The notes under the pieces are model-generated. The model saw only the letters and a list, made by a program, of their open reading frames with translations, did not search any database and was not told the DNA's origin. Positions 4,979 to 7,792 of a DNA stretch of 20,000 nucleotides are shown here, one piece after another (within the stretch, counting starts at the first letter, position 1; each line of letters starts with the position of its first letter). Position numbers and translations under genes: made by a program. This DNA is from an uncultured virus (IMG/VR IMGVR_UViG_3300031758_000013) (taxonomy: Duplodnaviria > Heunggongvirae > Uroviricota > Caudoviricetes), in IMG/VR virus record IMGVR_UViG_3300031758_000013. One strand, 5' to 3'.

Positions 4979-5220
4979 ACTGGAAGCCTCGCAGACTTTG
5001 GCAAATAATTCAAATCTTCAGCGGCCGCTTGAATCTTAGACCTAATCTTGATATTATTTTTAATGATAGAAGCAGCCGCTTCAATCTCTATATTATTCTT
5101 TTCACAGAGGTGGACGACGGCATCCATATAATCAAGTTTGTATTTTACTACTAGTATTTCTACTTCTTTAATAAACTTCTCATTCGACATAGTCTTTTGT
5201 AGAATAACGTCGTCCACCAT
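4975..5220 (-). CDS. 33: Late promoter transcription coactivator, T4 gp33 family
   Basis: FIKEVEILV...LDYMDAVVHLCEKNNIEIEAAASII...KIQAAAEDLNYLPKSARLPV; adjacent to gp59; start 5220 or 5226. Confidence 0.93.
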   Translation of the reverse strand: MVDDVILQKTMSNEKFIKEVEILVVKYKLDYMDAVVHLCEKNNIEIEAAASIIKNNIKIRSKIQAAAEDLNYLPKSARLPV

Positions 5221-5226
5221 AATCAA

Positions 5227-5805
5227 TTATCCTCGATAAAAAATGTGAGCACCAATTTTAGCAGTGCGATCAAAAACTCTACCCCATGATGGACTTACAT
5301 AGTCCGCATGATAGAACTTTGCACCTCTTGTTACGTCACCGTAATTTCCTAGGTACACATTTTCAGCGATCTCTTTGGCTTTGCGATATGCAGCCAGATC
5401 CTGAATTCGCTTTCCTCCTTCACACTTCCATGAAAACTGGCATACGCCTCTGGCCTTCTGATTGATGACCGCACATGGTGTTTTTGGGAAGCGTTTGTCT
5501 TTTACGCGGTTCAACACGACGTTGTTGACCGCAATCCTGCCCTTATAGGGTTCATGACCAGCTTCAAAATATGTATTCTCGGCCATGCATTGGATTTGTT
5601 GTTTATCGTAAGCGCTGAGATAAACAGGCTTCTTTACGATCTTTTCTTTTTCTATTACTTGAATTTCCGGAACCTTAATCACCTTGACCTCTGGTTCTTT
5701 CTGTGGAGTTGCAAGAGCTACACTCGTAACTGCAATGGCTCCTAGGAAAAAACCTTCACCCCAACGCAGATAAGGAAAGTCCTTCCTGTTTTCGAAAAGT
5801 TTCAT
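5227..5805 (-). CDS. Cell wall hydrolase, SleB/Hydrolase_2 family, with N-terminal hydrophobic anchor
   Basis: CMAENTYFEAGHEP..GRIAVNNVVLNRV...FPKTPCAVINQ...CQFSW...GAKFYHADYVSPSW...IGAHIFY. Confidence 0.95.
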   Translation of the reverse strand: MKLFENRKDFPYLRWGEGFFLGAIAVTSVALATPQKEPEVKVIKVPEIQVIEKEKIVKKPVYLSAYDKQQIQCMAENTYFEAGHEPYKGRIAVNNVVLNRVKDKRFPKTPCAVINQKARGVCQFSWKCEGGKRIQDLAAYRKAKEIAENVYLGNYGDVTRGAKFYHADYVSPSWGRVFDRTAKIGAHIFYRG

Positions 5806-5814
5806 TGTATCCTC

Positions 5815-6050
5815 TAATCTTAAATGATCTTGGCAAACAGAGACTGCTTTAAAGGCATCTCAGCCTAACAGTTTGTCCGTCGCTATGAGAAGATACAAAA
5901 TGAAATAACGAAGGTATCTTCCATCCATTTCCCTCTTACTGGAAATGCAAAATCATTATGGTTTCGTCAGTAGTATCTTAAAGATACTGCTCTCTAGCCC
6001 TAAGACTTGAAGCTTTGTAAGAGTCAATAGAGGTTGAACCTCCGTTGCGA
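5815..6050 (-). ncRNA. Candidate highly structured RNA / 5' leader of the cell wall hydrolase gene (family unassigned)
   Basis: Non-coding ~250 nt with at least six helices, a long-range closing helix (5957-5948 with 5832-5823) and two potential 7-bp loop pairings; starts just after TATAAATA. Confidence 0.65.
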
Positions 6051-6055
6051 TATTT

Positions 6056-6063
6056 TATTTATA
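6056..6063 (-). promoter_or_regulatory. T4-type late promoter
   Basis: Exact TATAAATA on minus strand, upstream of the structured leader and hydrolase; gp33 is present in the window. Confidence 0.85.
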
Positions 6064-6074
6064 CCATATATTAA

Positions 6075-6240
6075 GTTGCCGGATTCTGTTTCGAGGCTCC
6101 GGCGGGCCCAAGAGGTCATGCCGCTAGGCGGATACCTACAACGCTATCGTTATCGTTAGCATTTGTGTTTAATGGCAACTTTGCCAAGCAATCAGTCTCG
6201 AACCGCCCTATTCCGTCCCAGTCGATCCTATCTCACCCCC
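6075..6240 (-). ncRNA. ssrA: tmRNA coding piece (permuted two-piece, alphaproteobacterial type); tag ORF 6160-6116 = ANDNDSVVGIRLAA*
   Basis: Starts GGGGGTGAGATAGGATCGAC; tag GCT AAC GAT AAC GAT AGC GTT GTA GGT ATC CGC CTA GCG GCA TGA; terminal GCCGGA/TCCGGC stem; 3' end approximate. Confidence 0.96.
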
Positions 6241-6653
6241 GTCATAAATGATCTTGTCTTTCGACCTTGACCTTTTGCCCAACCTTCAGGAGGAATCTGA
6301 CCTTCTCTTAAACAACATTTCTGAGTTGGATCTTCTGGATTATGAAACCATCTTAATCCACCAGTTCCAGTTGGCTTAAACTCTCCGGGCTTTGGTCCAC
6401 GCCTTGCAGTTTTGTTAGCGTTTCCTTTAGCCGCGCCTCGTTTGCCAGCCTCACTTAGCATTTCCTTAACAAGTTGTTCTTTACTTATTAAGCCAGAAAG
6501 TCCCAACCATGCTAGTCGATCTTCCCATCTGCCATGTTGTTCGTAGAGAATTCTATGAGCTTCTGCATGTTCTTCAACAGTTAACTCAATCAAATTCTCT
6601 GGGTCATCAGTTCCACCCAAATACTTAGGCACTTTATGATGAATATGCTTCAC
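6228..6653 (-). CDS. HNH homing endonuclease (free-standing, mob-like) inside the tmRNA intervening segment
   Basis: HIHHKVPKYLGGTDDPENLIELTVEEHAEAH HNH motif; C-terminal WFHN...PPEGWAKG DNA-binding-type motif; GTG start with AGGAG SD. Confidence 0.92.
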   Translation of the reverse strand: MKHIHHKVPKYLGGTDDPENLIELTVEEHAEAHRILYEQHGRWEDRLAWLGLSGLISKEQLVKEMLSEAGKRGAAKGNANKTARRGPKPGEFKPTGTGGLRWFHNPEDPTQKCCLREGQIPPEGWAKGQGRKTRSFMTGVR

Positions 6654-6665
6654 TTAATCTCTCCT

Positions 6666-6689
6666 TCCTAGTTATTTATAAAACTAGGA
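6666..6689 (-). promoter_or_regulatory. Late promoter TATAAATA (6680-6673) embedded in a hairpin abutting the HNH RBS
   Basis: TCCTAGTT-TTATAAAT-AACTAGGA then AGGAGAGATTAA-GTG. Confidence 0.85.
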
Positions 6690-6711
6690 TCTTAAAGACT
6701 AAGATCACTTA

Positions 6712-6777
6712 TGGTGGAGGTGACGGGTACTGCCCCCGTGTCCTCAGAACCTTTATCGTTGATTGTCAACAACTGAT
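6712..6777 (-). ncRNA. ssrA: tmRNA acceptor piece (permuted two-piece)
   Basis: Ends GGAC-ACGGG-GGCAGTA-CCCGT-CACCTCC-A-CCA. T-loop GGCAGUA is typical of alphaproteobacterial tmRNA. CACCTCC pairs with GGGGGTG (6240-6234) giving G3.U70. 5' ATCAGTTGTTGA pairs with TCGAGACTGAT in the coding piece. Confidence 0.96.
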
Positions 6778-6783
6778 ATACTA

Positions 6784-6812
6784 TATATAATCTATTCTTG
6801 TTTAAATGTCAA
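6784..6812 (-). promoter_or_regulatory. Sigma70-type promoter of tmRNA
   Basis: TTGACA-N17-TATATA; predicted +1 near 6777, matching the start of the acceptor piece. Confidence 0.8.
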
Positions 6813-6815
6813 CAC

Positions 6816-7253
6816 TTAATTGCACCAAGATTGCTTTGCATCACCAAAATATTCTCTAGCATATCCGTTGGCAATTAACTGAGTTCGAAGACTCTTACCA
6901 TCAAGAATCATGTCACCCAGCACTCGGCCACCATACTTATCCCAATCATATAGGATATATCTAACTTTCACCGCTTTGGCCACTAGATCCTTTGTAAAGG
7001 CGCTCGCTGCTTGACCCTTTTCATCTTCTGCGGGACACTGCGCACGAAAACCTTTTTCTGGAGTATCTACACCATAGATACGAACTGAAATTTGCTTCTT
7101 AATTGGTGCTGGCACCCAGAGTGCTTCAATCTGTATAGTATCACCATCAGTTACTTTAATAACTTTGGCGTTATAAGCTTTACCAACCGGCGTCTTCTGT
7201 GCAAACACTGGAGTGGCCAGCGTCAGCGCTGCTAGAACAATAAACTTCTTCAT
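6816..7253 (-). CDS. Thermonuclease (staphylococcal nuclease-like) with signal peptide
   Basis: VIKVTDGDTI, VRIYGVDTPE, DKYGGRVLG, LIANGYAREY; N-terminus MKKFIVLAALTLATPVFA. Confidence 0.92.
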   Translation of the reverse strand: MKKFIVLAALTLATPVFAQKTPVGKAYNAKVIKVTDGDTIQIEALWVPAPIKKQISVRIYGVDTPEKGFRAQCPAEDEKGQAASAFTKDLVAKAVKVRYILYDWDKYGGRVLGDMILDGKSLRTQLIANGYAREYFGDAKQSWCN

Positions 7254-7262
7254 TTAGTTTCC

Positions 7263-7598
7263 TTAATTGCAGCGAGTTTGCCAATAGACGTAGCGCTCTC
7301 CGCGATACCATTCTGTCACCTGCTCGCGTACACAATAGCGTCGATCGTAACGATTATCAGGCGGATAATACTGATTATCATATTCACGACTACGATCCCG
7401 CGAGTCTCGCTGACTGGAACTAATAGTGCCTACTACAATTCCGCCAAGAATAGCGCCGCACAACCAGCCACAGCCAGTGTTACGATCGCGATCTCGATGA
7501 TTGTATTCTCTATGGTGTCGATCGCGATTTTCACGAGCGATGGCTGGAGTGGCAATAAGCATGCTACCAACAATCATAGATACAATAAACTTCTTCAT
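7263..7598 (-). CDS. Hypothetical exported/membrane protein with glycine-zipper-like segment
   Basis: Signal peptide MKKFIVSMIVGSMLIATPAIA; GAILGGIVVGTI; R/D/Y-rich. Confidence 0.75.
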   Translation of the reverse strand: MKKFIVSMIVGSMLIATPAIARENRDRHHREYNHRDRDRNTGCGWLCGAILGGIVVGTISSSQRDSRDRSREYDNQYYPPDNRYDRRYCVREQVTEWYRGERYVYWQTRCN

Positions 7599-7792
7599 AA
7601 TTCTTCATCCATTTCAATAAACATAACTCGTTTTCGTGGATCGCCTTCTGTGATACAACTCGTAAGTATAAGCGCCTCCTTATAATTTTTTGTATGAAAT
7701 TTTACTGGAAAGACGATCTCGTCTTCCTCAGTTTCAATCATCATTCCAACAAAGTAAACGCCATTTTGTTCTACCATACGTTTATTTATCAA
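7595..7792 (-). CDS. Hypothetical protein
   Basis: ORF overlapping the next gene by ATGA; start may be ATG 7777. Confidence 0.7.
   Translation of the reverse strand: MINKRMVEQNGVYFVGMMIETEEDEIVFPVKFHTKNYKEALILTSCITEGDPRKRVMFIEMDEEL

Follow-up and report, generated by a model that had tools for sequence, protein, structure and literature searches.

The window analysed here is a stretch of 20,000 nucleotides (nt) from an uncultured virus of the class Caudoviricetes (IMG/VR record IMGVR_UViG_3300031758_000013). It contains a permuted, two-piece gene for transfer-messenger RNA (tmRNA) whose spacer houses an open reading frame (ORF) for an HNH homing-endonuclease-like protein, and both lie on the minus strand. 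The tmRNA gene was identified with two Rfam models: RF04321 at 6774..6116 (79.9 bits, gathering score 47) and RF01849 at 6816..6074 (62 bits, gathering score 50). ARAGORN called no tmRNA in the window because the spacer of 471 nt exceeds the reach of the tool, whereas Rfam does find the gene; among the HNH-less relatives tried, ARAGORN calls a permuted tmRNA in 7 of 8.

The gene is ordered as acceptor piece, spacer and coding piece. The acceptor piece (6712..6774, minus strand), as placed by the Rfam alignment and a pairing script, comprises the T-arm (6739-6723), the 3' strand of the acceptor stem (CACCTCC, 6722-6716) and, directly after it, ACCA (6715-6712); the CCA end is thus encoded. The spacer (6241..6711, minus strand), delimited with the same script, is the segment removed in tmRNA maturation. 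The coding piece (6074..6240, minus strand), identified by Rfam and the pairing script, begins with G1 at 6240, where script and sequence reading agree that GGGGGTG (6240-6234) pairs with CACCTCC in 7 base pairs (bp) including G3.U. Its tag frame, GCT..GCA TGA at 6160-6116, encodes ANDNDSVVGIRLAA with a hydrophobic tail of the LAA type followed by a stop; the tags of relatives are ANDNDSFADIRLAA and similar.

The only long ORF of the spacer is the HNH ORF, recognised from the ORF list and by homology. It runs from 6653 to 6228 on the minus strand, with a GTG start, 141 amino acids (aa) and a TAG stop at 6230-6228, and it is preceded by a Shine-Dalgarno (SD) sequence, AAGGAG (6661..6666, minus strand), located by sequence reading and the leader fold. 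Among protein families it fits PHROG 655 'homing endonuclease' best (E 1.8e-11), and the HNH profile matches the HNH domain of the group II intron maturase 6me0_C (E 2.4e-4). The His...Asn...His core IHHKVPKYLGGTDDPENLIELTVEEHAEAH is present, and a 32-sequence alignment shows no variation at N20, H29 and H33 and hardly any at H5 and H6. Protein relatives amount to 355 at E<=1e-5; of the 32 relatives aligned, 31 match PF01844 at E<=0.1, the best at 1.6e-05. The carboxyl end is variable: P0003, a relative of 82% identity, has the same short tail as the window copy, and P0004, P0006 and P0007 end in GQGKKR. From the protein letters only, we infer that tails in KKSL, KKSF or KKPL correspond to a stop at the TGA of the box described below, and those in DGPE.. 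or MTGV.. to run-on into the tmRNA.

Across the end of the ORF the minus strand reads ...TTT ATG ACG GGG GTG AGA TAG GAT CGA C.... The sequence-only reading had placed the stop codon inside the mature tmRNA, and sequence and G1 pairing bear this out: TAG (6230-6228) occupies nt 11-13 of the tmRNA, and the ORF closes on the same 13 nt with which the coding piece opens. This overlap (6228..6240, minus strand) was established by sequence reading and comparison of homologues. RNase P generates the 5' end of tmRNA, and messenger RNAs (mRNAs) without a stop are tmRNA substrates. That a cut 5' of G1 would part the ORF from its stop, as had been proposed, is implied by the geometry of the window and of seven other distinct homologues. 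All three frames across G1 in the window reach a stop, within 8, 13 or 33 nt, and therefore any ORF that is open up to G1 must end just inside the tmRNA. The overlap in the window is no more than chance would give.

Two further elements lie at the end of the ORF. The first is a stem that closes the spacer, formed between TAAGTGATC (6703..6711, minus strand) and GATCATTTA (6245..6253, minus strand; codons R-S-F-M of the HNH tail) at -16.0 kcal/mol by RNAduplex. Such a stem was identified in all 17 distinct HNH-bearing spacers (their collection is described below), where the 9-16 nt immediately behind CCA pair with those immediately ahead of the TGAT box at RNAduplex energies of -4.3 to -19.4 kcal/mol, and HNH-less spacers carry the same closing stem. 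As it is present in all spacers, the endonuclease cassette sits in the loop of the stem, its last codons written over the 3' strand. The second element, found by comparison, is a leader box directly 5' of the RNase P site, TGAC in the window (6241..6244, minus strand), where its TGA is out of frame. In distinct HNH-less tmRNA precursors the box is TGAT in 30 of 36 and TGAC in 2 of 36; since TGAT is common there, the box belongs to the RNA gene and not to the insert.

The homologous loci were collected in two ways. Two conserved tmRNA motifs retrieved 119 and 117 stretches from viral contigs, of which 61 distinct ones carry both motifs, the window included. In 58 of these the spacer measures 5-133 nt, mostly a simple hairpin TAGACAC...GTGTCTA-TGAT in the short HNH-less ones; in the other three (window, L002 and L003) it measures 471-505 nt and carries the HNH gene. 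The HNH-less relatives are syntenic with the window on both flanks of the tmRNA. Their similarity to the window ends at the CCA end (query 990-991; CCA = 989) and restarts at query 1452-1489 (G1 = 1461), 0-28 nt around G1. The HNH gene is thus sporadic (3/61) at one precise site among otherwise syntenic loci. The second collection was an HNH profile scan of viral contigs, which gave 555 encoding loci; the 80 best entered the comparison (L241-L320) and, together with the window and L002-L004, made up 84 sources. An HNH ORF stands between N7-ACCA and its 7-bp G3.U complement in 20 loci of these sources, 17 of them distinct, and the Rfam tmRNA models span the HNH ORF in L002, L003, L241-245, L247, L248, L277 and L291. 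HNH relatives are found outside tmRNA spacers too, namely in L004, a locus without tmRNA, and in Synechococcus phage S-SKS1, whose copy is annotated as a homing endonuclease. In the phage GenBank collection S-SKS1 was the only HNH match and no tmRNA relative was found; a metagenome scan with the HNH protein (P0001) returned a source-like contig and relatives of the N-terminal part only, and no new spacer loci.

The position of the stop, taken as its last base counted from G1 as +1, was compared over the 17 distinct loci. The stop lies inside the tmRNA in eight of them: window +13, L002 +12, L003 +15, L242 +24, L243 +15, L244 +27, L250 +40 and L291 +7. It lies upstream of G1 in the other nine: L241 at -13, and L245, L246, L247, L248, L249, L277, L281 and L283 all at -2. 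In the eight loci at -2 the stop is the TGA of the TGAT box directly before G1. All three frames are in use, G1 being codon position 1 in six loci, 2 in eight and 3 in three. On the maximum-likelihood tree of the 17 proteins the inside or upstream state changes at least 4 times (3-5 in bootstraps; the starred branches force at least 2), and there is hardly any clustering, since as few changes suffice in 46-51 of 500 label shuffles. The stop-in-tmRNA arrangement is not conserved among homologues. On the simplest reading, the HNH ORF would have no stop of its own; its tail would drift in frame and length, and the first stop of the RNA gene would be used. Judged by these comparisons the overlap is incidental, an apparent side effect of tight packing and of a C-terminal tail that drifts freely.

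Some loci of these collections show other arrangements. In L308 the HNH ORF (1198-1692), a more distant relative, is located immediately upstream of a complete short-spacer permuted tmRNA (RF04321 1688-1953, 119.8 bits) and not inside it; the HNH family therefore occupies the flanks of tmRNA genes too. L012 (minus strand) and L085 have a 133-nt tmRNA spacer with an unrelated Cys-rich ORF of 57 aa (CxC ... CCGxC). In L012 this ORF starts 73 nt after the acceptor-piece motif; in both loci it stands directly behind a ribosome-binding motif AGAGGA and runs past G1 to a stop 51 nt inside the tmRNA, being a second, unrelated run-on spacer gene. L010, L014 and L123 have HNH-less spacers of 86-88 nt with a T-arm-like GGTTCGAATCC and an 8-bp end pairing that give them a tRNA-like look, and ARAGORN called no tRNA at the GGTTCGAATCC-bearing spacers. 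In the first 30 nt of the coding piece, after an identical acceptor stem, two distinct types of 5' region were identified, GGGGGTGACCATGGAATTCGAT... and GGGGGTGAACTAGGATCGAC..., and identical spacers are paired with either type (e.g. L054 and L021), a pattern suggestive of recombination within the tmRNA gene.

The leader of the HNH gene (6712-6630) folds at -21.3 kcal/mol (z -3.78), none of 200 shuffles being as stable. The fold is a hairpin predicted to sequester the ribosome-binding site (6653..6703, minus strand; -21.3 kcal/mol), with an outer helix 6703-6694/6662-6653 and an inner helix 6689-6682/6673-6666, the outer one spanning the 3' half of the SD sequence, the SD-start spacing and the first base of GTG. 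An equivalent hairpin was identified in 17 of 17 homologues, with shuffle z values of -2.7 to -8.0 and a mean pairing probability over positions -14..+3 of 0.40-0.83. The stems vary by compensating changes, and the 3' arm enters the SD sequence.

The hairpin loop contains, at 6673..6680 (minus strand), an exact match to TATAAATA, the T4 late-promoter consensus, which PMC2988022 uses and which by the T4 rule would predict a late start at about 6667. The leader beginning at 6667 is open (-2.5 kcal/mol). Of the 17 HNH-bearing spacers, 13 have an exact TATAAATA at a distance of 14-43 nt from the start codon, on its upstream side, and in all 17 a strong hairpin holds the motif, or the site corresponding to it, in its loop. 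A late start near 6670, as the sequence-only reading had it, is plausible given the exact motif at 6680-6673 and its recurrence, and the statement that a transcript begun there is without the acceptor piece holds from the layout alone.

Material from RNA libraries was available as Logan contigs of low depth; five runs share a small part of the stretch and four were compared. These contigs give neither ends nor strand, DNA carry-over is possible, and the uncovered parts of the window carry no meaning. A 205-nt contig (X1) equals 6190-6394 with no differences and bridges G1, a 151-nt contig (X2) spans 6239-6389 and a 165-nt contig (X3) lies at 6431-6595, all possibly of DNA origin. The other contigs are tmRNAs of relatives and diverge from the window at 6245-6246, where the short spacers begin. 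The RNA-library contigs decide nothing on processing at 6241/6240 or on a start near 6667.

The explanation that best accounts for these features, at a probability of roughly 0.7, would be that the disposable spacer of a phage's tmRNA gene holds an HNH cassette of the homing type, with hairpin and late-promoter timing like that of I-TevI and with a borrowed stop. A free-standing HNH homing-endonuclease gene would have colonised the spacer of a permuted, alpha-type tmRNA gene in a T4-like freshwater phage. The spacer being cut out of the RNA, the insert would be harmless to the tmRNA, as an intron spares its host gene. On the long precursor transcript the stable hairpin would bury the ribosome-binding site; from the late promoter in the loop a shorter late transcript would start at about 6667 with the binding site free, and the nuclease would be made late. 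The ORF would cross the 3' strand of the closing stem and end at the first in-frame stop offered by the RNA gene, which in one frame is the TGA of the TGAT box and in the other two a stop inside the tmRNA body; in the window the borrowed stop would be the UAG of AUAGGAUCGAC, tmRNA nt 11-13. After the RNase P cut, the excised spacer of the window phage would have no stop and any product of it would be expected to be tagged. Since precursor and excised spacer both contain the hairpin, both would be poorly translated from the outset, and loss of the stop with subsequent tagging would probably be a by-product on an RNA already silenced in translation.

Several observations weigh against this explanation. 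The outer helix in the window leaves the 5' half of the SD sequence uncovered. Four of the 17 spacers have no exact TATAAATA, and the window contains two copies against 1.54 expected, which is chance level, so that the weight of the motif rests on its conservation among loci that are related and not independent. A single collection supplied all 17 loci, which were picked by similarity to the query. The late start point and its timing are drawn from sequence conservation and T4 precedent. As for the protein, P0001 falls under the gathering cut-off of Pfam HNH PF01844 (19.3 bits vs 21.4, E 0.0012) and has no domain hit in a search limited to E<=0.001, the tail motif NPGLNFH found in most relatives is absent from the window copy, and nuclease activity, homing and target site are putative.

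A broader form of the tagging idea is unlikely, namely that tagging forms a second safety layer above the hairpin, by which nuclease translated from the early precursor would be tagged by the very tmRNA being made, coupling silencing to tmRNA supply in the manner of arfA. The ends of the ORFs are compatible with it: every spacer-embedded HNH ORF ends between 13 nt before and 40 nt after the RNase P site over the 17 loci, so that the processed nuclease mRNA would have either no stop (8/17) or a stop at most 13 nt from a raw 3' end (9/17; 1 nt in eight).

The switch proposed in the sequence-only reading would make the arrangement a selected design, in which maturation strips the HNH stop, early product is tagged and destroyed, and the late transcript keeps its stop. 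Its geometry is correct and its late promoter is supported. In addition, eight of the 17 distinct homologues end inside the tmRNA in spite of indels and different tails, the unrelated 57-aa ORF of L012 and L085 also ends 51 nt past G1, and there is a precedent in arfA, where in the available text of PMC3989581 an RNase III cut and trans-translation act in repression. The comparison of homologues nevertheless speaks against it. Homologues that stop upstream of G1, which the sequence-only reading had itself counted as contrary evidence, make up nine of the 17. At least 4 changes of state are needed on the tree, with scarcely any clustering (46-51/500 shuffles as few) and with all three frames in use; moreover, the ribosome-binding site would already be sequestered, both on the precursor and on the spacer once excised. 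For these reasons a built-in tagging switch is quite unlikely. Tagging by a tmRNA of the product of its own spacer is an attractive idea, but on the comparative data it probably does not explain why the overlap exists. Of the early-off and late-on behaviour that had been proposed, the timing is plausible, by way of the conserved hairpin and the predicted late promoter, and tagging as its cause is unsupported. Hairpin and late promoter together are the likelier timing switch and would give early-off and late-on expression without tagging.

It is quite unlikely that the ORF is what remains of a decaying homing endonuclease gene, silent or inactive by now, whose run-on reflects the loss of the original end. 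The GTG start, the shortened tail without NPGLNFH and the Pfam score of 19.3 bits, below 21.4, would agree with decay. However, all 141 codons form an open frame, H5, H6, N20, H29 and H33 occupy invariant or nearly invariant columns of the 32 sequences, SD sequence, hairpin and late motif are intact, and the same short tail is found in P0003 at 82% identity; RNA-library contigs of three studies also match the ORF exactly, with DNA carry-over possible. A domesticated phage function (e.g. host DNA breakdown or a packaging helper) that merely uses the spacer as expression site would fit late expression, as read from the late motif and as known for many structural and packaging functions of T4, and the adjoining staphylococcal-type nuclease gene (7253-6816), but it is very improbable, as the gene is sporadic (carried by 3 of the 61 distinct tmRNA-family loci), has relatives in other contexts (L004 without tmRNA, the S-SKS1 copy annotated as homing endonuclease) and has as its best family PHROG 655, homing endonuclease.

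Other features of the window concern transcription and the phage itself. A candidate sigma-70-like promoter for the tmRNA precursor was read by eye at 6784..6812 (minus strand), with TTGACA (6812-6807), a 17-nt spacing and TATATA (6789-6784). The rule of the promoter scan demands T as the sixth base of the -10 hexamer, hence this element is unlisted; similar elements stand upstream in L002 and L003. The promoter and terminator scan of the window found no terminator. A second exact TATAAATA is located at 6056-6063 (minus strand), just past the 3' end of the tmRNA and about 250 nt before a cell-wall hydrolase gene (5805-5227), and this copy may be a candidate late promoter for the lysis gene. 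The window encodes gp32 (2751-1843), the gp59 helicase loader (4978-4400), RNase H (13574-12723), PhoH and several nucleases, and by its gp32, gp59, RNase H and PhoH genes it is identified as a fragment of a T4-like phage. Its G+C content is about 36-47%, and the staphylococcal-type nuclease gene named above adjoins the tmRNA locus. Relatives L020, L044, L141 and L168, compared with window positions 5201-7700, are 91% identical downstream of the tmRNA spacer and 74% upstream; the jump in identity indicates mosaic phage genomes whose break point falls at the tmRNA spacer.

If the preferred explanation of a homing-type cassette holds, a selfish endonuclease gene can inhabit a stable-RNA gene without an intron, by way of a spacer discarded in tRNA-type processing, and the hairpin and late-promoter device shared with the intron endonucleases of T4 suggests that this device is portable among aquatic T4-like phages. 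There is a consequence for annotation as well: tmRNA genes with long spacers are missed by tmRNA finders such as ARAGORN and would be overlooked in routine work, and annotators would call the HNH gene and the RNA apart, leaving the overlap unnoticed. A full-text literature search, with subscription journals and supplements outside its scope, gave no account of an HNH gene in a permuted-tmRNA spacer or of a stop shared with a tmRNA.

Four groups of known systems can be compared with this locus. Two-piece tmRNAs have been published for aquatic myophages, e.g. the OM43 phage Melnitz, and the available text of PMC9004378 gives 53 two-piece calls in 18,146 phage genomes. The window resembles the Caulobacter-type and Melnitz genes, as far as these are described there, in the order acceptor, spacer and coding piece, in the G3.U acceptor stem, in the encoded CCA and in a tag of the ANDN...LAA type. 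It differs from the two-piece tmRNAs of Alphaproteobacteria and aquatic myophages in its spacer, which measures 471 nt and is protein-coding, in contrast to 5-133 nt in 58 relatives.

Endonuclease genes have been described in group I introns of tmRNA genes: according to the available text of PMC11915505 they are of the LAGLIDADG type, occur in 36 of 883 intron forms and belong to T-loop introns of one-piece genes. For permuted spacers the same text lists only a tRNA-Ala and a repetitive element, and the term 'HNH' occurs nowhere in it. The likeness, within that text, is that a selfish endonuclease gene lodges in a section of a tmRNA gene that can be removed; the difference is that the intron endonucleases are LAGLIDADG proteins in one-piece tmRNA genes, whereas the window has an HNH protein in a permuted spacer.

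The arfA gene of E. coli offers the parallel for the lost stop. In the portion of PMC3989581 available, RNase III cleavage leaves the mRNA without a stop and tmRNA then tags what is translated from it. The likeness to that account is that an endonucleolytic cut in or at the end of the ORF would remove the stop and create a tmRNA substrate. The difference is one of standing, since the arfA case is demonstrated and that of the window would follow from the layout, is missing in nine of the 17 homologues and would concern an RNA whose ribosome-binding site is already buried.

The closest likeness in timing is to the T4 type of embedded endonuclease gene. For I-TevI (td intron), I-TevII, I-TevIII, segB and mobE of Aeh1, the available text of PMC2988022 describes a hairpin that blocks early and middle translation and an internal late promoter whose transcripts escape it. 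Within what that text covers, the window shares with these genes an endonuclease gene embedded in an earlier transcription unit, a predicted hairpin over the ribosome-binding site on long transcripts and a location in RNA that the product of the host gene does not retain; its candidate late promoter would likewise be so placed that late transcripts could not fold the hairpin. It differs in that the removable RNA is the spacer of a permuted tmRNA, freed by tRNA-type processing and not a self-splicing intron, and in that the end of the ORF overlies the spacer-closing stem and the first 13 nt of the mature RNA, an arrangement known from sequence alone.

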